A stretch of DNA of 64,000 nucleotides from Candidatus Latescibacterota bacterium (GTDB lineage: Bacteria > Latescibacterota > UBA2968), in assembly GCA_965220765.1 (NCBI GenBank), contig OZ244847.1, positions 2,862,066-2,926,065 on the forward strand. Reading direction: 5' to 3'. Made by a program: the position numbers and the translations under genes. Numbering within the stretch: position 1 is the stretch's first letter; each line of letters starts with the position of its first letter. Of this stretch, positions 5,522-22,707 are shown in pieces. A model generated the notes under the pieces. That model did no database searches. It had not been told where the DNA came from and saw only the letters and a program-made list of their open reading frames with translations.

Positions 5522-6946
5522 ATGATTCACTTACCCATTTTACGTGCGGGGGAACCTTACACGAGTTTGAGCGTTCAGGAAGTGTCGCATATTCAAACTG
5601 GCGAGCCGCTCGTTCAGGTCAGTCAGGCAAATCGGGGTTTGGTCGCGAAGGACTTAAATGTAGCGGCGGCGAACAAACAGGCGCTCGACAGGCTGAGTGT
5701 GTCGGAACTCGTGGATATGACCCGCGAAGCCGCGCGCTTATTTGCAGAAGCCGATTTGCCCATTGGTGACCATATCCAAACGCCCGATGATTATGTCAAA
5801 CAGGTTTCTGGCACAACGGGTATGCCCGAAGCGCTCTGCCGTGCGAATATGGAAAAAATTCAGCTCGTGTGTACAGAGATCGAAGCTATTTTAGGAGGTC
5901 TCACGCGCGGGTTGGATCTCGCTGCTCTCGATGAGGGCTGGCACAACCAGGATGGTCGCTCTCTCAGCTATATTTGTCAGGCCGATGCACTCGGAGCTAT
6001 ATTGCCGAGCAATTCGCCAGGGGTACACGCGCTGTGGGTTCCATCCATCCCACTCAAAGTTCCTCTCGTTCTAAAACCCGGACGCGAAGAGCCCTGGACG
6101 CCTTTCCGAATTGCACAGGCGTTTATAGAAGCGGGGTGCCCGCCAGAAGCGTTTGGGTTCTATCCGACGGATCACGGTGGTGCTACTGAAATTTTGATTC
6201 GATGTGGTCGCTCCATGCTCTTCGGGGGCGGATCAACGGTCGCCCCCTGGCTAGACGATCCTCGCGTGGAAATTCACGGGCCTGGGCAGAGTAAGGTCAT
6301 TATTGGCGAAGATATGATAGATCGCTGGGAAGACTGTCTCGATATCGCAGTTGCTTCAATTACTGCAAATGGTGGTCGCTCTTGTATCAATGCGTCGGGC
6401 GTGTGGGTTCCCGCGCATGGTCGAGAAATTGCCGAAGCACTTGCAGAGCGATTGGCAAAAATCGTCGGGAGACCTCTGGATGATCCAGAAGCGCAGATCG
6501 CTGCATTTACCAACCCCGCATTCGCCGATCAAATTTCGCTGGCTATAGATATCAACCTGAAAACCATAGGGGCCGAAGATTTGACCGAGAAATTGCGCGG
6601 TGATCGGCTGGTTGAGATCGATGGATTGAAATTCTTAAACCCTACGGTTGTCCGGTGTGACGATTTTGAACATCCTCTTGCAAATACGGAATATTTGTTC
6701 CCCTACGCGAGCGTGGTCGAGGTTTCTCAGTCGGAAATTCTGGACGTGATTGGACCGAGCCTTGTGGTGACAGCCATAACAGAAGACCGTGTATTTATCG
6801 ATAAATTGCTCAATTCTCCCCATGTAGAAAGACTCAATGTGGGGGCGATTCCCACGCATCAGATTTCATGGGATCAACCACACGAGGGCAATTTGTTCGA
6901 ACACCTGTACCGGCAACGCGCGTTGCAATGGGCGAAACAGGCTTAG
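5522..6946 (+). CDS. Aldehyde dehydrogenase-superfamily protein (possibly LuxC-like acyl-CoA/acyl-enzyme reductase)
   Basis: ALDH-like core: LPSNSPGVHALWVPSIPLKVPLVLKPGREEP, EAGCPPEAFGFYP, and a candidate catalytic Cys in NGGRSCINASGVWV. The N-terminus (LPILRAG) and C-terminus (DQPHEGNLFEHL) resemble LuxC-type reductases as I recall them. Confidence 0.85.
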   Translation: MIHLPILRAGEPYTSLSVQEVSHIQTGEPLVQVSQANRGLVAKDLNVAAANKQALDRLSVSELVDMTREAARLFAEADLPIGDHIQTPDDYVKQVSGTTGMPEALCRANMEKIQLVCTEIEAILGGLTRGLDLAALDEGWHNQDGRSLSYICQADALGAILPSNSPGVHALWVPSIPLKVPLVLKPGREEPWTPFRIAQAFIEAGCPPEAFGFYPTDHGGATEILIRCGRSMLFGGGSTVAPWLDDPRVEIHGPGQSKVIIGEDMIDRWEDCLDIAVASITANGGRSCINASGVWVPAHGREIAEALAERLAKIVGRPLDDPEAQIAAFTNPAFADQISLAIDINLKTIGAEDLTEKLRGDRLVEIDGLKFLNPTVVRCDDFEHPLANTEYLFPYASVVEVSQSEILDVIGPSLVVTAITEDRVFIDKLLNSPHVERLNVGAIPTHQISWDQPHEGNLFEHLYRQRALQWAKQA

Positions 6947-6949
6947 GAG

Positions 6950-8065
6950 ATGAAAGCATTTGATTTTTGTCCTACTACGCGCGTGGTGTTTGGGGAGGGT
7001 ACACTCGCGCAATTGGGGAAATTGTCAAAAGAATTGGGCGGAAGCCGCATTCTTTTTGTGACCGATCCAGGGATTGTAAGCGCCAAGCTCACAGACCGTG
7101 CGATTGCGCCGCTTCAAAGCGCTTCCCTGGATTTTTTTGTGTTTGATGGTGTGGATGAAAACCCCACGACCGCGCATATAGAGGCCGGTGTTGCGTTTGC
7201 AAAAGCACAGGGGAATATTGATCTGATCGTCGGGATGGGTGGGGGTAGTGCGATGGATTGCGCCAAAGGGATCAATTTTATCCTGACAAACGGCGGACAG
7301 ATGGAAGATTATCTGGGTATGGGCCATGCGGCAAAACCCATGTTGCCCTCTATCGGGATTCCAACGACTGCGGGCACTGGGAGCGAGGCGCAGTCCTACG
7401 CGCTTATTTCCGATGCAAAAACACATGTCAAGATGGCCTGTGGCGACCTGAAAGCGCGATTTCGGAGTGTTATTCTCGATCCGTCGCTGGTCGAAACTGT
7501 GCCGAAAAATGTCGCAGCAGCAACGGGTATAGACGCCATCGCACATGCTATTGAAAGTTATGTTTGCACACGCCGCAATGCTATTTCTATGATGTTCGCA
7601 CAAAAGGCGTGGCAATTGCTTGCATCGAGTTTTGAAAGCGTGCTGAAGGATGCCTCCGATAACGAAGTGAGAAGCAAAATGCTTTTGGGCGCGCACTTTG
7701 CCGGCGCGGCTATTGAGAACGCCATGTTGGGTGCAGCACATGCGTGTGCCAATCCATTGACCGCGCATTTTGGTATTGTACATGGCGTCGCCGTGGCACT
7801 TATGCTGCCCGCTGTCGTCCAATTCAATGGAGAAACCGCAGGCGCGCGCTATCGTGGACTTGGAGCGGATGTTGATGAACTCGTCGAGAAGGTCGTTTTT
7901 CTGAAAGAATGTGCAAATCTGCCTTTTCAACTGCGCGACCTCGGTGTAGCGCGTGACAGCCTCCCAATGCTGGCAAGAGATGCGACTGAACAATGGACGG
8001 GTACCTTTAATCCGAGACCCGTGGATGAAGATGATTTTCTCGCCCTTTACGAATCTGTGTATTGA
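6950..8065 (+). CDS. Iron-containing (group III) alcohol dehydrogenase
   Basis: Motifs GMGGGSAMDCAKG, PTTAGTGSE, and the His cluster DAIAHAIESY ... HACANPL ... HGVA. It starts 3 nt after the upstream gene. Confidence 0.9.
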   Translation: MKAFDFCPTTRVVFGEGTLAQLGKLSKELGGSRILFVTDPGIVSAKLTDRAIAPLQSASLDFFVFDGVDENPTTAHIEAGVAFAKAQGNIDLIVGMGGGSAMDCAKGINFILTNGGQMEDYLGMGHAAKPMLPSIGIPTTAGTGSEAQSYALISDAKTHVKMACGDLKARFRSVILDPSLVETVPKNVAAATGIDAIAHAIESYVCTRRNAISMMFAQKAWQLLASSFESVLKDASDNEVRSKMLLGAHFAGAAIENAMLGAAHACANPLTAHFGIVHGVAVALMLPAVVQFNGETAGARYRGLGADVDELVEKVVFLKECANLPFQLRDLGVARDSLPMLARDATEQWTGTFNPRPVDEDDFLALYESVY

Positions 8066-8071
8066 TCCGCA

Positions 8072-9169
8072 ATGAGAACATTTCTTTTTTTTGTTTTTTA
8101 TTTATTTTTGATTCCCGTCCAGGCAGAAGAATGGAGCCGATTCCGCGGGGATGCACAATCTACAGGTGTTGCAAATAATAGTCTGCCCGCTGAACTGGAT
8201 GTGTTGTGGACGGCACAGGTCGAAATAGGGATTGAATCCACCGCCGCAATTTGGCAAGACGCGGTGTATGTGGGCGGGTTGGATGAAAAGCTATACGCTT
8301 TTGATTTTGATAGCGGTGCGCTCAAGTGGACGTATTCGGCTACGGGTGAGGTCAAATCATCGCCACTGGTTTTTGAAAAAACCGTGTTTTTCGGCGATGG
8401 CAATGGCGTTTTTCACGCTGTTGATGCACAAACAGGTAATGCATTGTGGACGTTTCAAACAGATGGGGAGATTATCTCGTCGGCAAATGCAACCGGGGGG
8501 CGCATCCTGTTTGGGTCTTATGACCAGTTCTTATACTGCCTCGCGCCGGACGATGGGGCTTTATTGTGGAAGATAGAAACGGATGGTTATGTTCACGGCA
8601 TGCCGGCTATTGCACAAGCGCATACGCTGATTGCGGGTTGTGATGGTCTTTTGCGCGTTATTGATATTGCCAGCGGAAAAGAGCAATCGCAAATTGAACT
8701 CGGCGCTTATGTGGGTGCCAGCGCAGCCGTTCATCAGACGCGCGCTTATGTGGGGACTTATGAAAGCCAGGTTTTGTGCATTGACTTAACGGCAAAAGAA
8801 ATTGCCTGGCGATACGAACATCCGCAGAGAAAGTTGCCCTATTTTGCATCGCCATCCGTAACTCCTGAGTGGGTTATTGTGGCAGGGCGCGACAAAATGG
8901 TTCACGCGCTTGATCCCGATACGGGGGATGTGTTGTGGACTTACATGTCCCGCTCCCGATTTGAAGCATCTCCCGTTGTGGTGGGAGATCGCGTTTTTGC
9001 AGGTACAATGGATGGAAAACTCGTGGCATTAAATCTCGAGACCGGTGAACTCGGTTGGGAATTTGTGACCGGATCGGAATTTATCGCCTCGCCCAGTGTG
9101 GCGCGCGAGCGGCTGATTATTGGCACAACAAATGGCACGTTATATTGTTTTGGAAAGGCGGAAGAATGA
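8072..9169 (+). CDS. Exported PQQ-like beta-propeller repeat protein
   Basis: Signal peptide MRTFLFFVFYLFLIPVQAEEW. Eight-blade-like repeats are visible (VYVGGLDEKLYAFDFDSGALKW, VFFGDGNGVFHAVDAQTGNALW, ILFGSYDQFLYCLAPDDGALLW, and others). Confidence 0.85.
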   Translation: MRTFLFFVFYLFLIPVQAEEWSRFRGDAQSTGVANNSLPAELDVLWTAQVEIGIESTAAIWQDAVYVGGLDEKLYAFDFDSGALKWTYSATGEVKSSPLVFEKTVFFGDGNGVFHAVDAQTGNALWTFQTDGEIISSANATGGRILFGSYDQFLYCLAPDDGALLWKIETDGYVHGMPAIAQAHTLIAGCDGLLRVIDIASGKEQSQIELGAYVGASAAVHQTRAYVGTYESQVLCIDLTAKEIAWRYEHPQRKLPYFASPSVTPEWVIVAGRDKMVHALDPDTGDVLWTYMSRSRFEASPVVVGDRVFAGTMDGKLVALNLETGELGWEFVTGSEFIASPSVARERLIIGTTNGTLYCFGKAEE

Positions 9170-10512
9170 GCGAGCAAATCCAGATTCCAGAGCCAGCAAC
9201 AACCCGCAAAGTGTGGAAGGAAACAGATGTTGGTAGCGTATTTGTTTCCAATTATCCGCCTTACTCTTTCTGGCGCGATGAAAATACGGCGCAGATTGAA
9301 GAGATGTTGCACACATCCGATTCGGGGGATAGAGAAATATCGCTGGGCCTTTACATGCATATTCCATTTTGTCGAAAGCGGTGCAAGTTCTGTTATTTTC
9401 GGGTTTATACAGATCGCAATAGTGCTGAAATTCAAACGTATTTAGATGCTCTGGCAAAAGAGGTGGAAACATATAGTACCTTGCCCCGTATTGCAGGTCG
9501 AAAATTGCACTTTGTTTATTTTGGTGGTGGTACGCCGTCTTATATTAGTGTCAAACACTTAAAGGCTCTGGTTGACCGGGTCAAGGCTGTGATGCCGTGG
9601 GATGATGCGGAAGAGGTGGCATTTGAGTGTGAGCCTGGTACGCTTTCACAGTCCAAAGTTGAGGCTATTCGGGAAATTGGCGTCACGCGCTTGAGCCTGG
9701 GTTTGGAGAACTTAAACGACGATATTTTGCGGGAGAATGGTCGCGCACACGTCAGCAAAGAAATATACAGGGCTATGCCGTGGGTCAAGGCGCAGGAATT
9801 TGCACAGGTCAATGTGGATTTAATCTCCGGTATGGTCGGGGAATCGTGGGAGACGTGGCGGGATACAGTGCAGGGCACCATTGATCTCGATGCGGATAGC
9901 GTTACTATCTATCAGATGGAATTGCCGTTTAATACGACGTATTCAAAAGCCATACGCGATGGAGGAGGTTTGCCTGTCGCAGATTGGGCCACCAAGCGCG
10001 CGTGGCACAATTATGCGATTGAAGAGTTTGCCAAAGCGGGTTATGAAACATCGAGTGCTTATACGCTGGTCAAAAAAGGGCGCTTGAATAAATTTGTCTA
10101 TCGAGATGCTCTGTGGCGCAGCGCGGATCTCATCGGTACGGGTGTGGCTTCTTTCTCTCATGTGGGTGGTATGCATTTTCAAAACCAGACGCATTGGGAT
10201 CCCTATATCGAAACTGTTGGAAAAGGGCAGCTTCCGATCAATCGCTCTTTTGTTCCTACACGCGAAGAACGGCTGATCAGAGAGATGATTTTGCAACTCA
10301 AGCTGGGGCGGATTGAAACAGCGTATTTTCAGGATAAATTTGGTGTCAATATTTTGCACCAATTTGGTGAAGCCTATCAAAAACTCAGGGATTACGAGAT
10401 GCTGGATTTTGACTCGGAAAGTATCACTCTGAGTAGAGAGGGACTTTTGCGTGTCGATCAATTGCTCCCCGAATTTTATCACGAAAAGTATCGCAATTCG
10501 CGTTATACATGA
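9166..10512 (+). CDS. HemN-family radical SAM enzyme (oxygen-independent coproporphyrinogen-III oxidase-like)
   Basis: CX3CX2C motif as CRKRCKFC at nt 9370-9393. HemN-type motifs YFGGGTPS and LSLGLENLND, plus a HemN_C-like tail. ATG at 9166 overlaps the upstream stop (ATGA). There are no additional Cys clusters. Confidence 0.9.
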   Translation: MSEQIQIPEPATTRKVWKETDVGSVFVSNYPPYSFWRDENTAQIEEMLHTSDSGDREISLGLYMHIPFCRKRCKFCYFRVYTDRNSAEIQTYLDALAKEVETYSTLPRIAGRKLHFVYFGGGTPSYISVKHLKALVDRVKAVMPWDDAEEVAFECEPGTLSQSKVEAIREIGVTRLSLGLENLNDDILRENGRAHVSKEIYRAMPWVKAQEFAQVNVDLISGMVGESWETWRDTVQGTIDLDADSVTIYQMELPFNTTYSKAIRDGGGLPVADWATKRAWHNYAIEEFAKAGYETSSAYTLVKKGRLNKFVYRDALWRSADLIGTGVASFSHVGGMHFQNQTHWDPYIETVGKGQLPINRSFVPTREERLIREMILQLKLGRIETAYFQDKFGVNILHQFGEAYQKLRDYEMLDFDSESITLSREGLLRVDQLLPEFYHEKYRNSRYT

Positions 10513-10543: not shown

Positions 10544-11785
10544 ATGAAATACGGGCATTATTTGTTAATCGCTGTTGTTTTGTGCTTTTCTCCCGCACAC
10601 GGAGATTGGCCCCAGTGGTTGGGCCCCAACCGGACGGGTATTTCATCTGAAACGGGATTGTTGACAACCTGGGCAAAAGATGGGCCAGCGGTTGTGTGGC
10701 AAAAAGAACTCGGTGAGGGGTTTTCCGGTATTTCGGTCGCGGATGGACGGGTTTATACAATGTTCTCTGCTGGGGAGGATGAATTTGTCATTTGTCTGGA
10801 AGAAAAAACGGGTGAGGAAATCTGGCGTTTTAAGACAGGTGCCAAATTCTATGAGCGTCAAGGTGGGAACGGTCCCCGTTCTCAGCCCACTGTGGATGGC
10901 GAGCGGGTTTTTGTGCTCAGTGCCGAAGGCTGGTTGTATGCGCTCAATGCAAAAGATGGAAAAAAACTGTGGTTGGTCGATCTCTATGATGGGTTGGGCA
11001 GTCGCGTGCCAAAATTTGGTTTTTCGACGTCGCCGCTGGTCGAAGGCGATTTATTGCTCTTAGAAGTGGGCACACGGCAGGGGACGTTTATCGCTTTGGA
11101 TAAGACAAATGGTGCTCTCAAGTGGGCGTCTCAACGAGATATCGTGTCTTATTCATCGCCCATTGTTGTAGATATTGCGGGTATTCGTCAGGTGGTTTTT
11201 GTTTCGGGTGAAGCAGCGGTTGGGCTTTCTCCCACTGATGGCTCGCTTTACTGGCGATTGCCCTGGCACACATCTTATGATCTGAATGTTGCCACGCCAA
11301 TTTTTGTGGCTCCAGATCGTATATTTATTTCTTCGGGTTATGACCACGGGGCAGCCTTGTTGCAAATTGAACCGCAGGGAGATGGTTTGAGCGTTAAAAA
11401 AGTGTGGGAAAGCCGCGGTATGAAAAACCATTTTGGCACATCGCTCCTGATCGGCGATTATATCTACGGTTTTGACAATGCAATTTTGAAATGTATTGAA
11501 GCAGAGACTGGCAAAGAACAGTGGCGACGCCGGGGGTATGGCAAAGGGACGCTTATTTTTGCCGATGGACAGTTGATCATTTTGAGCGATAAGGGCAAAC
11601 TCGCATTGGCAGATGCATCGCCCATGAATTTTAGTGAAAAAGTCAGTGCACAGGTGCTTTCGGGCAAATGCTGGACACCACCAACACTTGCCAATGGGAA
11701 AATATTTGTGCGCGATATGCACAGGATTGTATGCATGGATGTATCAGAGCCGCAGACGAAATCTGCGGACACGGAGAGCGAGTAA
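10544..11785 (+). CDS. Exported PQQ-like beta-propeller repeat protein
   Basis: ATG at 10544 follows GGAGGA. Signal peptide MKYGHYLLIAVVLCFSPAHG is followed by DWPQWLGPNRTG, which is typical of this family. Blade repeats follow (VYTMFSAGEDEFVICLEEKTGEEIW, VFVLSAEGWLYALNAKDGKKLW, and others). Confidence 0.85.
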   Translation: MKYGHYLLIAVVLCFSPAHGDWPQWLGPNRTGISSETGLLTTWAKDGPAVVWQKELGEGFSGISVADGRVYTMFSAGEDEFVICLEEKTGEEIWRFKTGAKFYERQGGNGPRSQPTVDGERVFVLSAEGWLYALNAKDGKKLWLVDLYDGLGSRVPKFGFSTSPLVEGDLLLLEVGTRQGTFIALDKTNGALKWASQRDIVSYSSPIVVDIAGIRQVVFVSGEAAVGLSPTDGSLYWRLPWHTSYDLNVATPIFVAPDRIFISSGYDHGAALLQIEPQGDGLSVKKVWESRGMKNHFGTSLLIGDYIYGFDNAILKCIEAETGKEQWRRRGYGKGTLIFADGQLIILSDKGKLALADASPMNFSEKVSAQVLSGKCWTPPTLANGKIFVRDMHRIVCMDVSEPQTKSADTESE

Positions 11786-13964: not shown

Positions 13965-15236
13965 ATGCTTGACTTGACTACAGACCGAAATGCGCTCTGG
14001 CAGCGACAGTTAAAGCGGTTGCGAGGTATGCTGTCTCCAGTGCTGAATAGCAATGATTTTTATCGCGAGAAGTTGAACCGGGTGGGGATTTATCGACCCG
14101 AGGATATTCAGACGCGCGATGATTACAGGCTGTTGCCCTTCACGACTAAAGCTGAATTATCGGCTGATCAGATGGCGTATCCACCTTATGGCAGCAACGT
14201 GACTTTTCCGCCAGATCACTATATCCGCGTCCATCAAACATCGGGGACTACGGGAGAGCCTTTGAACTGGTTGGATACGGTAGAGAGTTGGGATTGGTTT
14301 GCGCGTTGCTGGACTTATGTGTATCGCGGGGCGGGCGTGACGGCAAATGACAGATTGTTTTTTGCCTTTTCTTTTGGTCCTTTTATTGGATTCTGGAGCG
14401 GGCATGAAGGCGCGCGTTTAATGGGGACGATGGCCATCCCTGGAGGTTCCATGTCCTCAATTCAGCGTTTGCAAGCGATTCGGGATCATGGGGCTACTGT
14501 TCTTGTCTGTACGCCGACGTATGCCCTGCATCTGGCAGAGGTGGCTGAGGCAGAAGGCATTGATATTGCAGGTGGGACTGTTCAGACCACGATTCACGCA
14601 GGCGAACCCGGTGCGGGATTGCCTGCGACCAGACAGCGCATTGAGGAGGCCTGGGGCGCGCGTTGTTATGACCACGCGGGGGCGACTGAGGTGGGTGCGT
14701 GGGGATTTGAATGTGCGTTTCGAGATGGCATGCATATAAACGAATCTGAATTTATTTGCGAAGTGATCGATCCCGATACGGGCGAGCAAGCGAGAGAAGG
14801 GGAGTTGGTGCTTACCAATTTGGGACGCGCTGGCATGCCCGTTATTCGCTATCGCACGGGAGATCGCGTAAAGCTGAATACAGAAATTTATGATTACGGT
14901 TCGAGTTTCTCGCGTCTTGAAGGAGGCGTGATTGGACGTATCGACGATGCGTTGATTATCCGCGGCGTCAATTTTTACCCCAGCGCGATTGAAAATATCG
15001 TGCGGGAATTTCCCGAAGTAACCGAGTTTGCAGTGGATATTTATCGGCAAGGCGAAATGGATGATATGAAAATTCGCATCGAATTAAATGGCGGAGAGGC
15101 GGGTGCAATTTCTGAGGCGATATCCAGAGAGGTGAGACATATTCTGGGCATACGCGCTGGCGTTCAAACCGTACCGCACAATACTTTGCCGCGGTTCGAG
15201 CTGAAAGCGAGACGATTTACGGATCATCGAGTTTAA
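13965..15236 (+). CDS. Phenylacetate-CoA ligase family / coenzyme F390 synthetase-like adenylating enzyme
   Basis: Motifs HQTSGTTGEPL (AMP-binding P-loop), YRTGDRV and GRIDDALIIRGVNFYPSAIE are typical of PaaK-type ligases. It starts 3 nt after the receptor gene. Confidence 0.9.
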   Translation: MLDLTTDRNALWQRQLKRLRGMLSPVLNSNDFYREKLNRVGIYRPEDIQTRDDYRLLPFTTKAELSADQMAYPPYGSNVTFPPDHYIRVHQTSGTTGEPLNWLDTVESWDWFARCWTYVYRGAGVTANDRLFFAFSFGPFIGFWSGHEGARLMGTMAIPGGSMSSIQRLQAIRDHGATVLVCTPTYALHLAEVAEAEGIDIAGGTVQTTIHAGEPGAGLPATRQRIEEAWGARCYDHAGATEVGAWGFECAFRDGMHINESEFICEVIDPDTGEQAREGELVLTNLGRAGMPVIRYRTGDRVKLNTEIYDYGSSFSRLEGGVIGRIDDALIIRGVNFYPSAIENIVREFPEVTEFAVDIYRQGEMDDMKIRIELNGGEAGAISEAISREVRHILGIRAGVQTVPHNTLPRFELKARRFTDHRV

Positions 15237-15240: not shown

Positions 15241-16503
15241 ATGGAAAGCGTTTCTATGATTTCAGATCATTACGATGTCATTGTCATTGGTGGGGGGCCT
15301 GCGGGAAGCACGACTGCCGCGCTGGTCGCTGAATATGGGCACCGCGTGTTGCTGCTGGAAAGGGAGGAATTTCCCAGATTTCAGATTGGTGAATCCCTGA
15401 TGCCGGGTACGTACTGGTCATTCAAACGACTGGGGCTGCTCGATAAGCTAAAAAAAAGTGCGTTTGTCAAAAAATACAGCGTCCAGTTCTTTAGCGGATC
15501 GGGAAAAGGTTCGGCGCCATTTTATTTTCACTTACACGATCCCCACGAAAGTTCGATTACATATCAGGTGTTGCGTAGTGAATTTGATCTTATGATGATG
15601 GACAATGCCCGTGAGAAAGGTGCCGAAGTTGAGCAGGGGGCGAGTGTGCATCAGGTGCATTTTAGCGGGGATAGGGCAACGGGTGTTCAGGTAAGATACC
15701 GCGATGGACAAATTAAAGATGTGTTTGCCAGTATTATCGTAGATGCGACGGGGCGAAGCGCGCTTATTTCGAGAAGGCTAAAGACCAAGACGATTGAGCC
15801 GAAGCTCAAAAAGGCGTCTATTTTCACGCACTACAAGGGCGCGTTCCGAGATGAGGGTATTGACGAAGGAGCAACGCTGATTTTACATACGCGAGATAAG
15901 GACTCCTGGTTCTGGTACATCCCGCTGCCAGATGATGTGGCCAGCGTGGGCGTTGTTGGGGGATTGGATTATTTGCTGCAAAACCGCAAGAGAACCCCTC
16001 AGGAAATTTTTGAAGAAGAGCTGGCAAAGTGCATCCGCATGGAAGAACGGCTCGCGGGAGCCGAGCAGTTGTTTCCCATGAAAGTCACGCAGGACTTTTC
16101 ATATCGGTCCAATACTGTCGCGGGCGAGGGATGGGTGCTGGTGGGCGATGCTTTTGGTTTTATCGATCCCGTTTATTCTTCGGGTGTGTTTCTCGCGCTC
16201 AAATCGGGCGAGATGGCCGCCGATGCGATACACGAAGCCATTGAGAAGCGCGATTTCTCTGCCGGTCAACTCGGCAAATGGGGGCCAGAATTTCTTCCGG
16301 GCATGGAGGCGATTCGCAAATTGGTCTATGCTTTTTATACCAAAGATTTCAGTTTTGCCAGATTTTTAAAAGCGCATCCAGAATGTATAGATGGCATTAT
16401 CAATATCTTAAAAGGCAATGTCTATCGCGAAGATGTCACCCCTATTTTTGAGCCTATGGGACAAATGTGCGATCTGCCCGAGACTGTGGATCACTATTCC
16501 TAA
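15241..16503 (+). CDS. FAD-dependent oxidoreductase with flavin-dependent-halogenase signature motifs
   Basis: GxGxxG motif (VIGGGPAGS, nt 15289-15306), FPRFQIGESL, Lys pair K77/K78 (FVKKYSVQF) and WxWxIP as WFWYIP (nt 15907-15924). Confidence 0.8.
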   Translation: MESVSMISDHYDVIVIGGGPAGSTTAALVAEYGHRVLLLEREEFPRFQIGESLMPGTYWSFKRLGLLDKLKKSAFVKKYSVQFFSGSGKGSAPFYFHLHDPHESSITYQVLRSEFDLMMMDNAREKGAEVEQGASVHQVHFSGDRATGVQVRYRDGQIKDVFASIIVDATGRSALISRRLKTKTIEPKLKKASIFTHYKGAFRDEGIDEGATLILHTRDKDSWFWYIPLPDDVASVGVVGGLDYLLQNRKRTPQEIFEEELAKCIRMEERLAGAEQLFPMKVTQDFSYRSNTVAGEGWVLVGDAFGFIDPVYSSGVFLALKSGEMAADAIHEAIEKRDFSAGQLGKWGPEFLPGMEAIRKLVYAFYTKDFSFARFLKAHPECIDGIINILKGNVYREDVTPIFEPMGQMCDLPETVDHYS

Positions 16504-16515: not shown

Positions 16516-17817
16516 ATGCGAATTGCTTATATTGCCGCGGGTGCGGCGGGTATGTATTGTGGCAGTTGTATTCACGACAATGCGCTGGCCTCAGCGCTTC
16601 AGCGCAAGGGAATAGATTTCGCGCTTATTCCGACGTACACGCCCCTGCGTACCGATGAACCGGGCGCGAGTATTGATCGGGTGTTTTACGGCGGCATAAA
16701 TGTTTATCTCCAGCAGAAAATGGGGATTTTCCGACACACACCCTCTTTTGTCGATAGATTATTGAATAGCCGAATACTGCTCAATAGTCTCGCACGTTTT
16801 AGTGGATCGACGCGCGCTGAGGACCTCGGCGCACTCACTGTGTCGGTTTTAGAGGGGGAAGACGGCGCGCAAAAAAAAGAACTCGCAAAGCTGGTGCGCT
16901 GGTTGAAAGAGGATTTTCGACCCGATCTTGTGCAATTGACCAATTCGATGTTTTTGGGCATGGCCAGAGAAATGAAACGGGAACTCGGTATTCCCGTTTT
17001 GTGTTCTCTGCAAGGTGAGGATATCTTTCTCGAAGGATTGATAGAACCTTACAGGTCGGACGCGCGGCAGTGCTTACGAGATCGAGCAAGAGATGTCGAT
17101 GGATTTGTCGCCACTTGCGATTATTATGCCGATTTTATGGCCGATTACCTCGATGTGCCGCGCAATCGGATTCACGTCGCGTCTTTGGGTATCAAATTAG
17201 ACGGGCATGGGGAAAGCGATGTAAAGCCGGCCCCATCGCCTTTTGCGATTGGTTATCTCGCTCGGATATGTCCCGAGAAGGGGTTGCATGTGCTGGTCGA
17301 TGCGTTTCATCAACTGGCTGAACAAGTCGGTGTGGAGAATGTAAGACTCAGTGTTGCCGGTTATCTGGGACAAAGAGACGCGCCGTATTTTCAGCACGTA
17401 TGCGAACAAATTGCATCCCGGGGACTTTCCGATGTTTTTGATTATCGCGGGGAAGTCAATCGAGAAGAAAAAATTGCATTCCTGAATGGCATCCATATCT
17501 TATCTGTGCCAACGCCTTATAAAGAGCCTAAAGGGCTATCGCTGCTCGAAGCTATGGCCAATGGCGTTCCCGTTGTTCAGCCCCGGCACGGTATTTTTCC
17601 AGAGTGGATTGAAAAAACGGGTGGGGGAATTCTGGTAGAACCGGATTCTTCAGAGGCATTGGCGGCAGGGTTGCTGCGGATGATGAACGACGCAGAGGGG
17701 CGAGAGGCGATGGGGCAAAAAGGTAAAGAAGCAGTGCATCAAAATTTTAGCGACGACGATATGGCGGAAGCAACACTGGCGGTATATCGACAGTATGTGA
17801 CGGATTCAAAAACTTAA
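16516..17817 (+). CDS. Glycosyltransferase, GT4-like (GT-B fold)
   Basis: The C-terminal retaining-GT motif region EPKGLSLLEAMANGVPVV (E-x7-E) is present. The N-terminal Rossmann half carries an unusual CGSC motif. Confidence 0.85.
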   Translation: MRIAYIAAGAAGMYCGSCIHDNALASALQRKGIDFALIPTYTPLRTDEPGASIDRVFYGGINVYLQQKMGIFRHTPSFVDRLLNSRILLNSLARFSGSTRAEDLGALTVSVLEGEDGAQKKELAKLVRWLKEDFRPDLVQLTNSMFLGMAREMKRELGIPVLCSLQGEDIFLEGLIEPYRSDARQCLRDRARDVDGFVATCDYYADFMADYLDVPRNRIHVASLGIKLDGHGESDVKPAPSPFAIGYLARICPEKGLHVLVDAFHQLAEQVGVENVRLSVAGYLGQRDAPYFQHVCEQIASRGLSDVFDYRGEVNREEKIAFLNGIHILSVPTPYKEPKGLSLLEAMANGVPVVQPRHGIFPEWIEKTGGGILVEPDSSEALAAGLLRMMNDAEGREAMGQKGKEAVHQNFSDDDMAEATLAVYRQYVTDSKT

Positions 17818-17830: not shown

Positions 17831-18322
17831 ATGCCGACTTCATCTACTGGACTTACGTGGTTGATTTTTGCGTTGTTGACTGTGGGATCGTGGGGTTTGT
17901 ACGGGATTTTTCTGCATACTGGTCAGATCGCTATGGGCGATCCCGAAAATGGACGCTATAAGGCGTTTCTGTTTGTGGGTATTGCCTATCTTGTGACGGC
18001 TGTTATTGGATCTCTCATTGTGCTGGCTATCAACGGATCGGACTGGTCATTTCCGACAAAGGGGCTGACATGGTCGCTGCTGGCTGGTACTGTGGGTGCT
18101 ATTGGCGCGTTTGGTGTGCTCCTCGCCTTTGGCGCTAAGGGGACGCCACCCGTGGTTATGTCCATTGTTTTTGCCGGCGCGCCTATGGTCAATGCTATCG
18201 TCTCTCTCATTATGCATCCGCCAGCAGGTGGATGGGGCGGTTTGAACTGGCAATTTGTTTTGGGTATTATATTGGCTGCGCTGGGAGGGTGTCTGGTGAC
18301 CTTATTTAAACCTTCGTCTTGA
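17831..18322 (+). CDS. Small integral membrane protein (about 5 TM, DMT/EamA-half-like)
   Basis: Five hydrophobic Gly/Ala-rich segments. It is tightly packed between the GT4 and thioesterase genes. There is no diagnostic motif. Confidence 0.65.
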   Translation: MPTSSTGLTWLIFALLTVGSWGLYGIFLHTGQIAMGDPENGRYKAFLFVGIAYLVTAVIGSLIVLAINGSDWSFPTKGLTWSLLAGTVGAIGAFGVLLAFGAKGTPPVVMSIVFAGAPMVNAIVSLIMHPPAGGWGGLNWQFVLGIILAALGGCLVTLFKPSS

Positions 18323-18333
18323 TAGATAGCACT

Positions 18334-18750
18334 ATGCACAGTGAATTTCACACCACTCGCAGGGTAGAATTTTCCGATACGGACATGGCCGGGATTGTAC
18401 ACTTTTCCCGGTTTTTTGTCTTTATGGAAGCGGCCGAGCATGCTTTTTTGCGCGCGTTGGAGACGAGTGTTTCAACAGAATGGGATGGAAATAAAATTGG
18501 ATGGCCGAGGTTGGAGGCAACATGTACATATCTCAGTCCAGCCGTATTTGAAGATGTGCTGGATATTCATCTGAAGGTGATACGCAAAGGTACAAAATCC
18601 CTGACCTATCGGTTTGATTTTTTTCGCGGAGAAACGGCTATTGCCAGCGGAGAATTGAGTGTGGTATGTTGTATATGCAATCCCGGCGAAAAAATCAGGT
18701 CCATACCGATTCCAGATTTTATTGCGGATCAGATTCAGGTCTCGGAATAG
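18334..18750 (+). CDS. Hotdog-fold acyl-CoA thioesterase (4HBT/YbgC-like)
   Basis: The motif VEFSDTDMAGIVHFSRFF carries the catalytic-Asp signature of 4HBT-type thioesterases. The size is about 138 aa. ATG at 18334 is preferred over the listed TTG at 18319. Confidence 0.85.
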   Translation: MHSEFHTTRRVEFSDTDMAGIVHFSRFFVFMEAAEHAFLRALETSVSTEWDGNKIGWPRLEATCTYLSPAVFEDVLDIHLKVIRKGTKSLTYRFDFFRGETAIASGELSVVCCICNPGEKIRSIPIPDFIADQIQVSE

Positions 18751-18769
18751 TATATTTAAGAGGTCGCAA

Positions 18770-19423
18770 ATGGCACTAAAAGTTGAAAATCTTTCCAAAC
18801 ACTTTGGCGATGTAAATGTTCTGCAGGATATATCTTTTGAAATGGCAGCGGGGCAATCGCTGAGTGTTATGGGTCCTTCGGGGTCGGGGAAGAGTACCTT
18901 GTTGCATGTGCTGGGTACGCTGGACCGACCATCTGAGGGTAGTCTCGAAATAGAGGGGCAGGATCCCTTCGCATTATCTGAAAACGAACTCGCGCGGTTT
19001 AGAAATCAGGGTATTGGATTTGTGTTTCAAGAGCACCATCTTTTGCCGCAATACTCGGTTCTGGAAAATGTCTTGATCCCGACACTGGCATTTCGAGATG
19101 GCGATGCGCGAGACCGCGCCCGAGAGATTATTGATCGCGTGGGCTTGTCGCATCGCATTGATCACCGTCCCGCTGAATTATCTGGCGGCGAGCGACAGCG
19201 CACAGCTGTTGCGCGTGCGCTTATCAATTCCCCTGCATTGCTTTTGTGCGACGAACCAACGGGTAGCCTGGATGGGGCGCGAGCAGAGGAAATAGCCAAT
19301 TTGCTGTTTGAATTGCACGAGCGGGAAAATAATATCCTGATCTGTGCAACGCACAGTACGGCGCTTGCCCATCGCTTTGAGCGGCGGTTTGATTTGCAGG
19401 GGGGAACGTGCGTCGAAGTCTGA
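18770..19423 (+). CDS. ABC transporter ATP-binding protein (MacB/LolD-type)
   Basis: Walker A GPSGSGKST, signature LSGGERQR, Walker B LLLCDEPT. Start taken at MALKVENLSKHFG (18770). Confidence 0.9.
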   Translation: MALKVENLSKHFGDVNVLQDISFEMAAGQSLSVMGPSGSGKSTLLHVLGTLDRPSEGSLEIEGQDPFALSENELARFRNQGIGFVFQEHHLLPQYSVLENVLIPTLAFRDGDARDRAREIIDRVGLSHRIDHRPAELSGGERQRTAVARALINSPALLLCDEPTGSLDGARAEEIANLLFELHERENNILICATHSTALAHRFERRFDLQGGTCVEV

Positions 19424-22400
19424 TCTATTTCTGGCGAATTAATCTGGCTGTTATGCTCGGCGTGGCAGTGGCGACGGCTGTTCTGACGGGTGCTTTGATC
19501 GTGGGCGATTCCGTTCGGGGTAGCTTGAGAGATTTGTCGTTGAGTCGTCTGGGCAAAATTGACCACGCTCTGGTATCCGAGCGATTTTTCCGCGAGAGTT
19601 TGGAACGGGACCTCGAGCGTGAACTCGGCGCTCCGGATGTTGTATCGGCTATTAGCCTGAACGGAACAGCTGTTCAGGCGGAATCGAATACGCGGGCTTC
19701 CCGCGTTCAAATTCAGGGTATTGACAACCGCTTTGCAAATCTGTTTGATCAAATATTGCCCGAGTTGACGATCGGGGGAATATTCCCATCGGTTGTTGTC
19801 AATGAATCCCTCCAAAAAGAACTCAATGCACAGATTGGCGATGCCATTCTGCTGTCTTTCGAGCAATCAGATGATATTCACCGCGAATCGCTATTTGGAC
19901 GTGCTGATGATGCGGTTCAGACAATTCGACTGACGCTCGCAGGCGTGCTTCCCGATAGGGGAATGGGGCGCTTTGGCCTTTTCGCCCGCCAGAATGTTCC
20001 GCTCAATGCATATTTGTCGCTGCCGGTTTTGCAAAAAGCGTTGGGTCAAAGAGGTCGCGTGAATACATTGCTGGTGTCGGGTGATCCAGATGCAGAAGTT
20101 CAGGAAGCTCTTTCCCGCGTTGCAACGCCGGATGATCTCGGTATCGTCATCCGCCATGAAGCAGATTATTTCGCTATTGAGAGCACGCAGTTTATTCTCA
20201 AATCCCATATTGCGGAAACTATTCAACACATATCTACGGAATTAAACGCGTCCCACATGTCTATTCTCACCTATCTGGCGAATATCACACAGGTCGGGGA
20301 GAGAGAATTGCCCTATTCTACAATTTCTGCTTTAGATGTTGGGAATTTGGGGACCTTTCAGATTGTAGATGGATCACTACAACTCGGGGAAGATGGTATT
20401 TTGCTGAATACCTGGGCGGCTGAGGATTTGAACGCACGGGTTGGCGATGAAGTGAGAGTTGCCTATTACGAAGTCGCGCCTGGGGAAAAACTCCTGACCC
20501 GTTGGGCGACATTCCAACTCAAGGGTATTGTGGCAATGGCGGGATTGGGCGCAGATGAAAAGTTGTCTCCCGATTATCCGGGCCTGGGGGATGCAAATAA
20601 TATGGCAGATTGGGAAGCGCCTTTTCCCATAGACTTGAGCCGTGTTCGCCCGAAAGATGAAGATTATTGGGATACCTATCGCGACGCGCCAAAAGCCTTT
20701 GTGTCTGTCGCGACTGGGCAGAGATTGTGGCAAAGTCGATTTGGCGTATTAACCGCTATACGCATTGGGGCTATTGCGGGAGAAGATATCGAAACAACAG
20801 CGAAGCGATTTGAGGACCGCTTGCTGACAAATATTGCACCCGGATCGGTTGGCCTGACATTTCAGCCTGTCAAACAGCAGGGCCTGGCCGCTTCTGCGGG
20901 AGCGACGGACTTTAGCGGGCTGTTTATTGCATTCAGTCAATTCCTGATTATTTCCGCAGCTCTTCTGGTCGGATTATTATTTCGTCTGAGTGTGGAGCAG
21001 CGGGGTAGAGAAGTCGGGATGCGGATGGTATCGGGATATACGGGAAAAAAAATTCGCAGCCTCCTTAGCTGTGAGGGCTTTGTACTGGCCGGTGTGGGCG
21101 GCATCACAGGGCTGATAGGCGGTGTTTTCTATGCCTATCTGATTATGGTGGGATTGCGTACTTATTGGGTGGGCGCAGTTGGTACGTCTGATCTCTCGCT
21201 TCACATCCATGCATCGAGTCTGTTATTGGGCTATGCCATTTCACTCATCGTGATCCTGCTGGCAATCTGGCTCACGCTCCGCCGTTTGGGCACTATTTCT
21301 GTTCGCGCACTATTATCGGGTATTACGGAAGTGCTGCGCGCAAAGCCGCGTACAAAATGGTATGCCCAGGGCAGCCTCGTTTTCGCCGCGCTCAGTCTGG
21401 GGGGGGGTGCGACGGTGGATCCATCAACAGGTACAGGCTTATTTTTTCTTAGTGGCGCGCTGTGGATGGTTTCGGGGTTGTGCTTTCTATCACTCTGGTT
21501 TAGACGCGGGCATCGCGCCATAAGAGAGGGTATTATTGGGATGGGGGTGCAAAATAGCAAACGGCAGCCCGCGCGAAGTTTGTTGTGTGCCTCACTCATC
21601 GGATGTGCGTGTTTTGTCATTGTTGCAGTAGGCGCGAATAGGCGAACTGATTTGACTCAAAATATCGCTCAGGACAAAGCCTCTGGCACGGGGGGCTTTG
21701 CCCTCATCGCCGATGTTGATGTGCCGATTTATCGGGATTTCAATTCAAAAGAAGGGCAATTTGAACTCGGATTTTCGCAGGCAGATACAGAACTCTTAAA
21801 TCAGGCGCGGTTTATCCCGCTACGCGTTTTGCCGGGTGAAGATGCGAGTTGCCTCAATCTTTACAAGCCCGAAAGTCCGCGCGTTTTGGGTGTTCCCGAA
21901 GCTCTGCGTCAGCGAGGTGGTTTTACATTTCAGCAAATGAGTACTGAAGTGGAAAATCCCTGGACTCTATTATCCGAGGATTTGGGTGCAGATGTGATTC
22001 CGGCAATTGGGGATTACAATTCGGCTATGTGGATCTTGCACAAGCAATTGGGCGATGATATTGTGTTGCAGAATGAAATAGGGGAGATTGTCAGGCTGAG
22101 ATTGGTGGGCTTGTTAAAGACGAGTATTTTTCAAAGTGAGTTGCTGATTTCCGAAGACAATTTTTTGCGGCACTTTCCCGATCAGAGTGGATATGGTGCT
22201 TTTCTCGTTGAAACGCAACAACCCGTTCAGCTTACTGCACTTTTGGAAAACCGATTAAAAGATATCGGGTTAGACGCCGTATCCACAACGCAAAAGCTCG
22301 CGCATTTTCAGGAGGTCGAAAATACGTATCTCTCCACCTTTCAAACACTGGGGGGATTGGGCCTGCTGTTGGGTACGCTCGGATTGGGGATCGTCCTGTT

Positions 22401-22707
22401 GAGAAATGTTATTGAAAGACGCGGTGAATTGGCGGTTCTTCGCGCCTTTGGATTTCGCCGCGCAGTGCTGTCGCGCATGTTGCTCGCGGAGAATGGTTTT
22501 TTAATGTTTGTGGGCCTGGCTATCGGCAGCGTCTCCGCGCTTATTGCCGTAGCCCCCCATGTCATGAGTTATGGTGCGTTAATCCCCTGGGGATCGCTGG
22601 CTCTCACGCTTGTCATTATATACGGTGCGGGCCTTATCGCAAGCGCGATAGCCGTTTTCTATGCCCTGCGAGCACCTTTATTGCCAGCGTTGAAACAGGA
22701 GATATGA
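19408..22707 (+). CDS. ABC transporter permease with two FtsX-type domains (MacB/LolCE-like, fused)
   Basis: 1099 aa with two TM bundles separated by large extracytoplasmic regions. FtsX-like C-terminal modules lie around aa 560-700 and 980-1099. The GTG start overlaps the ATPase stop by 16 nt. Confidence 0.85.
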   Translation: MRRSLIYFWRINLAVMLGVAVATAVLTGALIVGDSVRGSLRDLSLSRLGKIDHALVSERFFRESLERDLERELGAPDVVSAISLNGTAVQAESNTRASRVQIQGIDNRFANLFDQILPELTIGGIFPSVVVNESLQKELNAQIGDAILLSFEQSDDIHRESLFGRADDAVQTIRLTLAGVLPDRGMGRFGLFARQNVPLNAYLSLPVLQKALGQRGRVNTLLVSGDPDAEVQEALSRVATPDDLGIVIRHEADYFAIESTQFILKSHIAETIQHISTELNASHMSILTYLANITQVGERELPYSTISALDVGNLGTFQIVDGSLQLGEDGILLNTWAAEDLNARVGDEVRVAYYEVAPGEKLLTRWATFQLKGIVAMAGLGADEKLSPDYPGLGDANNMADWEAPFPIDLSRVRPKDEDYWDTYRDAPKAFVSVATGQRLWQSRFGVLTAIRIGAIAGEDIETTAKRFEDRLLTNIAPGSVGLTFQPVKQQGLAASAGATDFSGLFIAFSQFLIISAALLVGLLFRLSVEQRGREVGMRMVSGYTGKKIRSLLSCEGFVLAGVGGITGLIGGVFYAYLIMVGLRTYWVGAVGTSDLSLHIHASSLLLGYAISLIVILLAIWLTLRRLGTISVRALLSGITEVLRAKPRTKWYAQGSLVFAALSLGGGATVDPSTGTGLFFLSGALWMVSGLCFLSLWFRRGHRAIREGIIGMGVQNSKRQPARSLLCASLIGCACFVIVAVGANRRTDLTQNIAQDKASGTGGFALIADVDVPIYRDFNSKEGQFELGFSQADTELLNQARFIPLRVLPGEDASCLNLYKPESPRVLGVPEALRQRGGFTFQQMSTEVENPWTLLSEDLGADVIPAIGDYNSAMWILHKQLGDDIVLQNEIGEIVRLRLVGLLKTSIFQSELLISEDNFLRHFPDQSGYGAFLVETQQPVQLTALLENRLKDIGLDAVSTTQKLAHFQEVENTYLSTFQTLGGLGLLLGTLGLGIVLLRNVIERRGELAVLRAFGFRRAVLSRMLLAENGFLMFVGLAIGSVSALIAVAPHVMSYGALIPWGSLALTLVIIYGAGLIASAIAVFYALRAPLLPALKQEI

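Follow-up and report, generated by a model that had tools for sequence, protein, structure and literature searches.

A conserved cluster of about 20 genes was analysed in the sponge-type genome of a Candidatus Latescibacterota bacterium (GCA_965220765.1, contig OZ244847.1). The window, by which the whole analysed stretch of 64,000 nt is meant (positions 2,862,066-2,926,065 of the forward strand), holds most of this cluster. Our preferred reading, on which our confidence is evenly divided, is that the cluster encodes a carrier-free route, using neither a nonribosomal peptide synthetase (NRPS) nor a polyketide synthase (PKS), to a halogenated, reduced and glycosylated metabolite derived from a hydroxybenzoate, with dedicated export and import. 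An earlier note on this DNA had read 13 plus-strand genes at 5522-22707 as a self-contained pathway in which a carboxylate would be activated, reduced, changed by radical chemistry, possibly halogenated, glycosylated and freed from its thioester, with export through a MacB-type pump and re-uptake that depends on TonB. The block was indeed found to be one conserved, self-contained unit with these functions; its boundaries had been drawn too narrowly, the conserved unit spanning from before base 1 of the window to position 28688.

Conservation and extent of the cluster

Relatives were collected by scanning one genome per species with the ligase gene (g07) as seed. The scan gave 80 loci, designated here by L-numbers, in which the presence and order of genes were read from a tblastn matrix and gene-order maps. 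At least five of the 13 genes were present in the same order, at 45-97% identity, in 38 of the 80 loci (25/25 from Latescibacterota, 10/25 from Poribacteria, 2/6 from Gemmatimonadota and one from an unclassified metagenome-assembled genome, MAG). Co-localisation of at least five genes in unrelated genomes, which the earlier note had named as its check, was thus borne out. The 13-gene block is not a chance juxtaposition, colinear conservation being far above chance. All 13 genes were found in ten loci and the ligase-halogenase pair in 47. Relatives of the g07 ligase with at least 58-65% identity were found in many MAGs, and several Latescibacterota MAGs (L005-L011) were 90-96% identical to the window. 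Annotated neighbourhoods in other assemblies had the same architecture. Isolate names and sponge-genome papers suggest that many of the MAGs bearing the cluster come from sponges; it was also present in MAGs from ocean water and sediment.

The genes are listed below in their order in the window. Those of the 13-gene block are numbered g01 to g13, those upstream u1 to u4 and those downstream d1 to d4.

u1, 3-1559, plus strand: C-terminal ~518 aa of a ~730-aa PQQ_2 propeller, cut by the left window edge
u2, 1553-3019, plus strand: secreted PQQ_2 beta-propeller, 488 aa (Pfam PQQ_2)
u3, 2904-4124, plus strand: EhpF-like adenylating enzyme lacking the usual C-terminal domain of the ANL superfamily (PDB 3hgu)
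u4, 4145-5329, minus strand: AAA_14/DUF4143 ATPase, insertion between u3 and g01 (Pfam)
g01, 5522-6946, plus strand: EhpG-like reductase of the aldehyde dehydrogenase (ALDH) superfamily, 474 aa (Aldedh 54.7 bits, weak)
g02, 6950-8065, plus strand: iron-containing (group III) alcohol dehydrogenase (Fe-ADH 160 bits and ADH_Fe_C 130 bits)
g03, 8072-9169, plus strand: Sec-exported, highly regular eight-blade PQQ-like propeller (Beta-prop_ACSF4, PQQ_2)
g04, 9166-10512, plus strand: HemN-like radical S-adenosylmethionine (SAM) enzyme, 448 aa (Radical_SAM and a weak HemN_C match)
g05, 10544-11785, plus strand: Sec-exported PQQ_2 propeller (PQQ_2 122 bits; signal peptide)
g06, 11835-13961, plus strand: TonB-dependent receptor of the siderophore-receptor subfamily (plug and barrel, TIGR01783)
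g07, 13965-15236, plus strand: PaaK-type aryl-acid coenzyme A (CoA) ligase (AMP-binding_C_2 70.5 bits)
g08, 15241-16503, plus strand: flavin-dependent halogenase of the PltA/CndH/CmlS/Bmp2 type (Trp_halogenase 89.7 bits)
g09, 16516-17817, plus strand: GT4 glycosyltransferase with an unrecognised acceptor domain (Glycos_transf_1 102.8 bits)
g10, 17831-18322, plus strand: 163-aa membrane protein of five helices, possibly a single-domain half transporter of the drug/metabolite transporter (DMT)/EamA type
g11, 18334-18750, plus strand: YbgC/4HBT-type hotdog acyl-CoA thioesterase (4HBT_2, 4HBT)
g12, 18770-19423, plus strand: LolD/MacB/YbbA-like ABC ATPase (ABC_tran 121 bits)
g13, 19408-22707, plus strand: duplicated FtsX/MacB-type permease, 1099 aa (two FtsX stretches and MacB_PCD)
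d1, 22714-24249, minus strand: membrane-anchored PQQ_2 propeller with three N-terminal transmembrane helices (Pfam, hydropathy)
d2, 24396-25706, plus strand: secreted PQQ_2 propeller (Pfam)
d3, 25847-26797, plus strand: TAXI-family solute-binding lipoprotein of a tripartite ATP-independent periplasmic (TRAP) transporter (NMT1_3 223 bits; TAXI structures)
d4, 26778-28688, plus strand: fused TRAP permease (TIGR02123 548 bits, above cutoff)

All 13 open reading frames (ORFs) of the block were found again, with successive gaps of exactly 3, 6, -4, 31, 49, 3, 4, 12, 13, 11, 19 and -16 nt as first described, and their family labels were upheld by Pfam and NCBIfam. In g04, g05, g11 and g12 the longest ORF opens at an upstream TTG or GTG. 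An internal ATG is preferred, as in the earlier note, and agrees with homologue lengths of 448, 413, 142-148 and 216-223 aa, respectively. As had also been claimed, no NRPS, PKS, carrier, IucA/IucC or regulator domain was detected with Pfam and NCBIfam in the 13 genes or their flanks. Condensation, ketosynthase (KS), carrier and IucA/IucC domains were found in 0 of the 21 proteins encoded from 1 to 28688, and no gene of that stretch had a carrier-protein or flavin-reductase domain. The idea of a single transcription unit is favoured by spacing and conserved synteny; consensus promoter and terminator scans gave background counts (27 vs 21±5 and 32 vs 24±4) and speak neither for nor against it. 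No riboswitch or other Rfam family was matched in 1-29000, even at E ≤ 1.

The cluster extends past the 13 genes because an EhpF-like partner of g01, propeller genes on both sides and a TAXI-TRAP pair belong to it, and because the six PQQ_2 genes found in the window are confined to 1-25.7 kb, with none in the remaining 38 kb. The frame of u1 is open from nt 3. In L089 the first gene of the cluster encodes a homologue of 728 aa, to residues 204-728 of which u1 aligns. The u2 protein is 67-70% identical to the product of the gene directly 5' of the EhpF-like gene in L071, L076, L082, L089 and L090, distant clusters in which two propeller genes precede the EhpF-like gene. As the left edge cuts the first propeller gene, the window shows neither where the cluster begins nor any regulator that may precede it. 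In L089 and in a JGI contig, a divergent pair comprising a response-regulator gene and an HD-domain gene was seen 5' of the cluster. Downstream, d1 is 89-95% identical in close relatives and 61-62% identical in L026 and L088, and a d2 homologue (60-62% identity) follows the FtsX gene in L002/L030, L032, L033 and L040.

The true start of u3 is probably the ATG at 3033. The u4 ATPase was found in L006, L007, L009 and L010 (94-96% identity) and was not found in L005, L008, L011 or the more distant clusters. It behaves like a mobile insertion, splits the ancestral u3-g01 junction and does not belong to the pathway. L001 has a weak DUF4143 match upstream of its cluster. Related clusters are interrupted, at points that differ between them, by small genes of a toxin-antitoxin-like or selfish kind (DUF433, 23S_rRNA_IVP, ParE-like) (L002, 5443-5712 and 13303-13878; L001, 11268-11752).

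Enzymes and the proposed route

The g07 protein matched PaaK structures at E 1e-55 and two PaaK models at 257 bits (cutoff 700) and 228 bits (cutoff 646). It is classed as a PaaK-type enzyme, yet not PaaK itself. Its linkage to a chorismate lyase suggests that it acts on an aromatic acid other than that of PaaK. A gene for a PF01947 Rv2949c-like chorismate pyruvate-lyase was found near the ligase gene in 27 loci, directly 5' in most, often alongside a gene for a second AMP-binding enzyme of ~580 aa. The lyase lies within the full-cluster variants L004, L074 and L079 and on the opposite strand in L083. The ligase was found without the rest of the cluster in about 30 loci. An indolepyruvate oxidoreductase, considered as its neighbour in such loci, was rejected; the neighbours are the chorismate pyruvate-lyase and the second AMP-binding enzyme. 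Neither the 580-aa AMP-binding enzyme nor a sodium:solute symporter (SSF) was found in a search of the window.

One Acidimicrobiia contig (L064, 16-8391) carries in a row genes for a halogenase, 3-deoxy-D-arabino-heptulosonate 7-phosphate (DAHP) synthase, an AMP-binding enzyme, chorismate lyase, a PaaK-like ligase and a phosphopantetheinyl transferase. This module is apparently a different relative, dependent on a carrier. Because chorismate lyase is linked to the ligase, and DAHP synthase as well in L064, a chorismate-derived hydroxybenzoate, most simply 4-hydroxybenzoate, is the likeliest substrate predicted for g07. Poribacteria loci that have only the ligase encode, next to it, a phenol-type O-methyltransferase, a GFO/IDH/MocA oxidoreductase and a family-less but conserved protein of 189 aa (L015, 6613-9446; also L016, L017, L022, L023 and L025).

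The g08 protein matched PDB entry 8zop (229 bits), then PltA, CndH, Mpy16, CmlS and Bmp2. Its top PDB matches are almost all halogenases (134-229 bits); a geranylgeranyl-type reductase reached only 66.6 bits. The score of 222 bits against the CmlS model, under the equivalog cutoff of 900, indicates that g08 is not CmlS itself. The FAD-binding motif GxGxxG is conserved in all 50 orthologues. Its form in g08, GGGPAG at residues 17-22, is kept in 48 of 51 aligned sequences (the query and 50 orthologues), the others having GGGPGG (two) or GCGPAG (one). The motif WFWYIP is present, and W.W.IP is conserved in 50/50 orthologues. K78, invariant in the 50 orthologues, falls opposite the KK pair of PltA (FPKKF), at the catalytic lysine of that enzyme, and opposite RK in 8zop. 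Halogenases of the PltA/CndH/CmlS/Bmp2 type normally act on thioester-tethered, usually carrier-tethered, substrates. Since no carrier protein is present, CoA is the obvious handle for halogenation. The g11 thioesterase scored 61 bits against TIGR00051, just under the cutoff of 68.7, and its DTD catalytic motif is conserved in 27 orthologues.

The earlier note had labelled g01 an ALDH-like reductase. The family label stood; its partner had been missed, being the EhpF-like u3 at 2904-4124, which the DUF4143 ATPase gene cuts off from g01. The u3 protein matched PDB EhpF (3hgu) at 155 bits over EhpF residues 7-354 of 369 and was 34% identical (E 7e-57) to the product of an EhpF-like gene of a phenazine (ehp/phz) cluster. 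Its P-loop motif TGGSTGVPK is conserved. Over 394 aa, the g01 protein shares 25% identity (E 8e-34) with the EhpG-like protein of L085, whose gene comes after the EhpF-like one in the phenazine cluster. It keeps the catalytic cysteine (GGRSCINAS). The general-base glutamate, which activates water in hydrolytic ALDHs, has given way to HGPGxSK in all 19 orthologues and likewise in the EhpG homologue. In relatives the EhpF-like gene lies 20-60 nt 5' of g01 (directly upstream in L011, L032, L033, L040, L071 and L082). The two orthologues are adjacent wherever the DUF4143 insertion is absent; a 1.2-kb insertion parts them in the window. Some homologues are named 'arylcarboxylate reductase' by NCBI, and g02 scored under every NCBIfam equivalog cutoff. 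EhpF and EhpG have reportedly been proposed to reduce an aromatic carboxylate to the aldehyde via an acyl-adenylate. From these homologies, u3, g01 and g02 may form a carboxylate-to-aldehyde-to-alcohol module, with direction and substrate both predicted. A literature search on structure 8ZOP, the EhpF/EhpG mechanism and combinations of the cluster families returned only a 2026 preprint, considered below, and annotation tables.

The g04 protein is placed in a separate HemN-like subfamily. It covers positions 21 to 434 of the 454 of the HemN model and scored under the cutoff of each model examined (ChuW/HutW 186/400, HemN 180/325, HemW 171/205 and STM4012 170/380 bits). The CX3CX2C motif (CRKRCKFC) and GGGTP are invariant in 40 orthologues, and the PDB matches were HemN (1olt) and NocN (9p2u). 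By analogy with class C methyltransferases, it might C-methylate an aromatic ring, which is a guess.

On the preferred reading, the starter would be an aromatic acid, most likely 4-hydroxybenzoate. It would be made from chorismate by the Rv2949c-like lyase in many relatives, and imported or made elsewhere in the lineage of the window. The PaaK-type ligase g07 would convert it into a CoA thioester. The ring would then be halogenated by g08 with CoA as handle instead of a carrier protein, the halide probably being bromide, given seawater, and g11 may free the acid. The pair u3 and g01, homologous to EhpF and EhpG, would reduce the carboxylate to the aldehyde, which g02 would reduce to the alcohol. 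A radical step by g04, perhaps a C-methylation, is tentatively added. Glycosylation by g09 would follow, and g10 and the MacB-type pump g12/g13 would export the product. The receptor g06 and the TAXI-TRAP transporter (the SSF symporter in other lineages) would import a carboxylate, either recaptured product or a second precursor. The secreted propellers, which look non-catalytic, are putative periplasmic or surface binding partners.

Several points weigh against this route. Its product is only predicted, and the order of steps is our own construction. A search of the window found no chorismate lyase, and the window has no flavin reductase. Halogenases of the PltA type usually act on a carrier-tethered substrate, and a CoA-tethered substrate for g08 is only proposed. 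The radical SAM enzyme and five or six propellers fit no assigned pathway step. The phyla share far more identity than is usual in secondary metabolism (at least 58% for the ligase and 65-83% for g10). The loci L004, L074 and L079 own a lyase and yet retain importers, which leaves the imported solute ambiguous. The GT4, g10 and importer genes can occur apart from the ligase and halogenase (L087), and some close relatives lack g08-g13 at the locus, as does L001, which has genes 1-7.

The last two observations would also fit two or more independent neighbouring modules, one for an aromatic acid (ligase, halogenase, reductase) and one for the envelope (GT4, small membrane protein, thioesterase, LolD/FtsX pump, propellers, receptor), as would the many loci that have the ligase without the rest. 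The gene order is, on the other hand, kept at 45-70% identity across phyla with gaps of 3-19 nt. Moreover, the modules are interleaved, with propeller genes between enzyme genes and an importer between halogenase and GT4. We consider independent modules very improbable.

Transport, propellers and alternative readings

Only the C-terminal donor domain of g09 matched solved structures, and its nearest relatives include GT4 enzymes with small-molecule acceptors. The GT4 gene stays linked to g10 even where the cluster is split (L087). In that Poribacteria locus (7669-10477) the GT4 gene is followed by three tandem g10 paralogues (49%, 53% and 76% identical to g10); TRAP and SSF genes are nearby and the ligase is elsewhere. 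The g10 protein had no Pfam or NCBIfam match, and a PDB sequence search gave nothing. Among its 7390 homologues, several are named 'DMT-like permease' by JGI and one has PF00892 (EamA); the DMT-like label comes only from these names and this one precomputed match. Five helices were predicted both by hydropathy and by an AlphaFold2 model (poor, pLDDT 63.5), with which Foldseek found nothing below E 0.1 in the PDB.

The g12 ATPase scored 243 bits against LolD (cutoff 308) and also matched YbbA, MacB and DevA models. The g13 permease matched ADOP weakly, and its hydropathy profile consists of two repeats of one transmembrane helix, a large periplasmic domain and three transmembrane helices. No HlyD/membrane-fusion-protein adaptor or TolC-like exit-duct domain was found in the cluster. 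PDB sequence searches with the FtsX permease, the GT4 and the TAXI protein gave generic relatives only.

Three importer families are conserved. A small DUF3311 protein and an SSF symporter are encoded in 22 loci; where such a locus holds a full cluster, their genes separate the halogenase gene from that for GT4 (L089, 14159-15825; L090, 15293-16980). The TAXI-TRAP genes hold the same slot in 12 loci, three of which also carry the SSF symporter. The lineage of the window has no SSF symporter, and its TAXI-TRAP genes lie 3 kb downstream of g13. The Poribacteria copies, located just 3' of the halogenase gene, are 57-74% (d3) and 68-72% (d4) identical; in L018 one propeller gene lies between the halogenase and TAXI genes. 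This exchange of importer families at one position (non-orthologous replacement) shows that the cluster functions in part by taking up a solute, which is probably a carboxylate. Importers persist even in clusters that own a lyase, so that they may carry either the product or a second precursor. The 'recapture' of the earlier note is a possible reading, and the conserved importers could equally bring in a precursor. The 'envelope glycolipid' also suggested there was not upheld, as no lipid-building enzyme is present and a chorismate-derived aromatic starter is indicated instead.

The importers also bear on a second explanation, in which the TonB-dependent receptor and the TAXI-TRAP or SSF importer would admit an aromatic or other carboxylic acid from outside. 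Once joined to CoA, the acid would undergo hydroxylation or halogen chemistry, reduction and glycosylation, so that the cell could use or detoxify it (salvage or catabolism), with no dedicated export product. CoA ligases, thioesterases, ALDHs and alcohol dehydrogenases are classic catabolic families, the window has no chorismate lyase and the surrounding genome is rich in sulfatase and polysaccharide-degrading genes, all of which, with the three importer families, agree with it. It accounts less well for the linkage of lyase to ligase (with DAHP synthase in L064), which points to de novo synthesis, and for the conserved GT4 and MacB-type exporter. Ring-cleavage and beta-oxidation genes are absent, the EhpF/EhpG-type pair is an ATP-consuming reductive module and the intact motifs of g08 speak against a simple hydroxylase or dehalogenase. 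We regard this explanation as unlikely.

The g06 receptor raises the further possibility of a metallophore-like shuttle, in which the ABC pump would release a phenolic or catecholic chelator that returns with its metal through a siderophore-type TonB-dependent receptor. The protein has a signal peptide followed by a TonB-box-like EEIVVTE, and it scored 235.8 bits against TIGR01783, above the siderophore-receptor subfamily cutoff of 223.5; the next best match was the catecholate receptor Fiu. Export and import are both conserved, and methylolanthanin, a metallophore bearing 4-hydroxybenzoate, is a precedent. Poribacteria variants, however, lack the receptor entirely. There is no NRPS or IucA/IucC scaffold and no Fur-type or other regulator was seen, TRAP and SSF importers are atypical for ferri-siderophores, and the halogenase motifs, thought to block hydroxylation, are intact. 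Such a shuttle appears quite improbable.

The g03 propeller scored 199.5 bits against Beta-prop_ACSF4 (above cutoff) and also matched PQQ_2. It has the signal peptide MRTFLFFVFYLFLIPVQA/EE. In the PDB it was matched best by propellers of designed or consensus sequence, by surface proteins of archaea and by BamB, rather than by catalytic quinoproteins. The g03 stop codon overlaps the g04 start; an exported propeller gene is always next to the radical SAM gene, with overlap in every lineage. The g05 slot, from the radical SAM gene to the ligase gene, contains one to three tandem propeller genes in relatives. In a Poribacteria locus (L004, 2894-7314), the PQQ_2 slot is filled instead by two propellers of other families, YWTD/LDL-receptor-class-B (546 aa) and Kelch (415 aa), which are eukaryote-like repeat proteins within a metabolic cluster.

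The overlap of propeller and radical SAM genes in all lineages could mean that the propeller is itself the substrate, with the flavoprotein and the radical SAM enzyme installing a cofactor or cross-link in it as in QhpG/QhpD or LodB systems and the ABC transporter exporting it. Propellers are strongly enriched in the cluster, and g08 also matched the QhpG (137 bits), LodB (122 bits) and GoxB models. Neither QhpG nor LodB was matched above cutoff, whereas the matches to true halogenases are far stronger (222-229 bits) and the motifs are kept. Sec signal peptides imply that the propellers cross the membrane unfolded, and unrelated propeller families (PQQ_2, YWTD, Kelch) fill the slot. The ligase, reductase pair, GT4 and thioesterase would also be left unexplained. 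We hold propeller maturation to be highly improbable.

A broader idea joins export, propellers and import in a new kind of extracellular metabolite cycle, common to several phyla of marine and sponge-associated bacteria. A halogenated phenolic glycoside, formed without NRPS, PKS or carrier proteins, would be exported, handled by the propellers and brought back by importers of the outer and inner membrane. It would shuttle a metal, redox equivalents or a signal, or else have an effect on the host. A core physiological role of this kind would account for the very high conservation across phyla, unlike that of ordinary secondary metabolism. This idea is speculative and seems distinctly unlikely.

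Other classes were rejected. Protein maturation of the quinohemoprotein amine dehydrogenase (QHNDH) or LodAB type, as a class, has components missing or scores below cutoff. Heme degradation (ChuW/HutW) was discarded on the g04 score of 186 bits against a cutoff of 400. An aryl-polyene, xanthomonadin or flexirubin cluster was discarded in the absence of KS and acyl carrier protein (ACP) domains, with the FlxY model at 157 bits against a cutoff of 520. Siderophore clusters of the NRPS or NRPS-independent (NIS) type were discarded because their defining domains are absent from the 21 proteins.

In the remainder of the window, a UbiA-family prenyltransferase is encoded 30 kb from the cluster (52615-53442, minus strand); 4-hydroxybenzoate polyprenyltransferases are among the members of its family. 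Genes for three sulfatases, a heparinase II/III-like protein, an enolase-superfamily enzyme and an L-rhamnose isomerase lie at 28679-34979, 43049-44431 and 55142-56830. This set represents a repertoire for degradation of sulfated polysaccharides, typical of sponge-associated Latescibacterota and Poribacteria. Two tandem PhyH-type dioxygenase genes are located at 35080-36769, and a 673-aa DUF6785/DUF6784 membrane protein is encoded beside an aldo/keto reductase at 45471-47492. The lowest G+C content of the window (0.445 vs about 0.51), at 40001-42151, coincides with a DDE transposase gene (41171-42151, minus strand). Housekeeping functions comprise an XPB/RAD25-type helicase, a second Helicase_C_3 protein and an SbcC/SbcD-like pair (47497-49596, 53448-55205 and 59057-63345), an NAD-dependent DNA ligase (50377-52431) and tRNA-Ala(GGC) (50194-50267).

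Poribacteria, Latescibacterota and Gemmatimonadota are dominant in many sponges and still uncultured, and the microbial source of most sponge organohalogens is unresolved. The cluster is among the most conserved halogenase-containing loci in these three phyla and is missed by standard genome-mining rules. If the preferred reading is true, halogenated benzyl alcohols or aldehydes, and glycosides of these, can be made without a carrier protein, and the secreted PQQ-like propellers that abound in sponge symbionts would be placed in a functional setting for the first time.

Comparison with known systems

The bmp pathway (Pseudoalteromonas, Hormoscilla) and the ambigol pathway (Fischerella) combine a chorismate lyase, a stand-alone adenylating enzyme and a Bmp2/PltA-type halogenase acting on a thioester-tethered aromatic acid, which is then released. 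The present cluster is similar in that g08 matches Bmp2 and PltA structures and, with the lyase found in relatives, in its combination of enzymes. It differs by having no carrier protein, P450 coupling enzyme or decarboxylating halogenase. The handle would be CoA in place of ACP, and the present cluster adds reduction, glycosylation, propellers and its own import and export.

In the 4-chlorobenzoate pathway, an aryl-CoA ligase, ring-halogen chemistry on a CoA handle and a 4-hydroxybenzoyl-CoA thioesterase (4HBT-type hotdog) act together. The logic of the CoA handle is shared, and g11 belongs to the same thioesterase superfamily. That pathway removes the halogen with a crotonase-family dehalogenase, whereas the present cluster has a halogenase and would run in the opposite direction.

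In the pathway to mycobacterial p-hydroxybenzoic acid derivatives (p-HBAD), 4-hydroxybenzoate comes from a lyase of the Rv2949c family and leaves the cell in glycosylated form. Relatives of the present cluster have a lyase of this family linked to the ligase, and the window itself has none. The p-HBAD pathway uses other glycosyltransferase families and has no halogenation, reduction or TonB/TRAP transport.

EhpF and EhpG belong to the D-alanylgriseoluteic acid (phenazine) pathway of Pantoea agglomerans. The u3 protein is of the same length class as EhpF and likewise has no ANL C-terminal domain, and the order of adenylating enzyme and reductase genes is common to both systems. Phenazine genes are absent here, and an iron-containing alcohol dehydrogenase gene follows the pair. 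With an identity of only 25-34% to EhpF/EhpG, the substrate must differ.

MacB-type (type VII) exporters such as LolCDE, DevBCA and YbbAP likewise consist of a LolD/YbbA/DevA-like ATPase and an FtsX permease with MacB periplasmic domains. The present cluster differs in its fused double FtsX permease of 1099 aa, its lack of a membrane-fusion adaptor or TolC-like gene and its equivalog scores below cutoff.

The earlier claim that the operon matches no cluster class is no longer strictly true, as Loureiro et al. (bioRxiv 10.64898/2026.08.03.742642) defined a 'Halo_AMP' pseudoclass, a Trp_halogenase-type gene beside an AMP-binding gene with the two matches a few kb apart at most, in sponge metagenomes. 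Neither a match in MIBiG nor a product is given in the preprint. According to these authors, Halo_AMP clusters often have PQQ-like domains and TonB-dependent transporters, and also radical SAM, glycosyltransferase, thioesterase and ABC genes. Their adenylating enzymes are PaaK-like, their halogenases Bmp2-like, and Latescibacterota and Poribacteria are among the sources. The same preprint also describes the bmp pathway. Its remark that toxin-antitoxin genes are frequent in Halo_AMP clusters is echoed by the toxin-antitoxin-like insertions in relatives of the present cluster. The Halo_AMP rule applies here, with PF04820 at 89.7 bits in g08 and PF00501 at 27.8 and PF14535 at 70.5 bits in the adjacent g07; since the PF00501 score is just under the Pfam cutoff, pickup by the Halo_AMP pipeline is likely, not certain. 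Halo_AMP has the same ingredients as the present cluster, yet it is a detection rule, not a characterised system, and carries no assigned function. The family analysed in depth in the preprint (CC A; Acidobacteriota), which comprises an adenylating enzyme (A), a flavin-dependent halogenase (FDH), a radical SAM enzyme (rSAM) and a P450, has an architecture unlike that of the present cluster. Chorismate, 4-hydroxybenzoate, the EhpF/EhpG pair and the importers are not mentioned there.

Membership in each of the nearest known analogues thus fails on at least one defining component, and the cluster type has been noticed before, not explained. To this the present analysis adds a proposed starter (chorismate or 4-hydroxybenzoate), a candidate CoA handle, a predicted two-protein aryl-acid reductase and import as an integral part.

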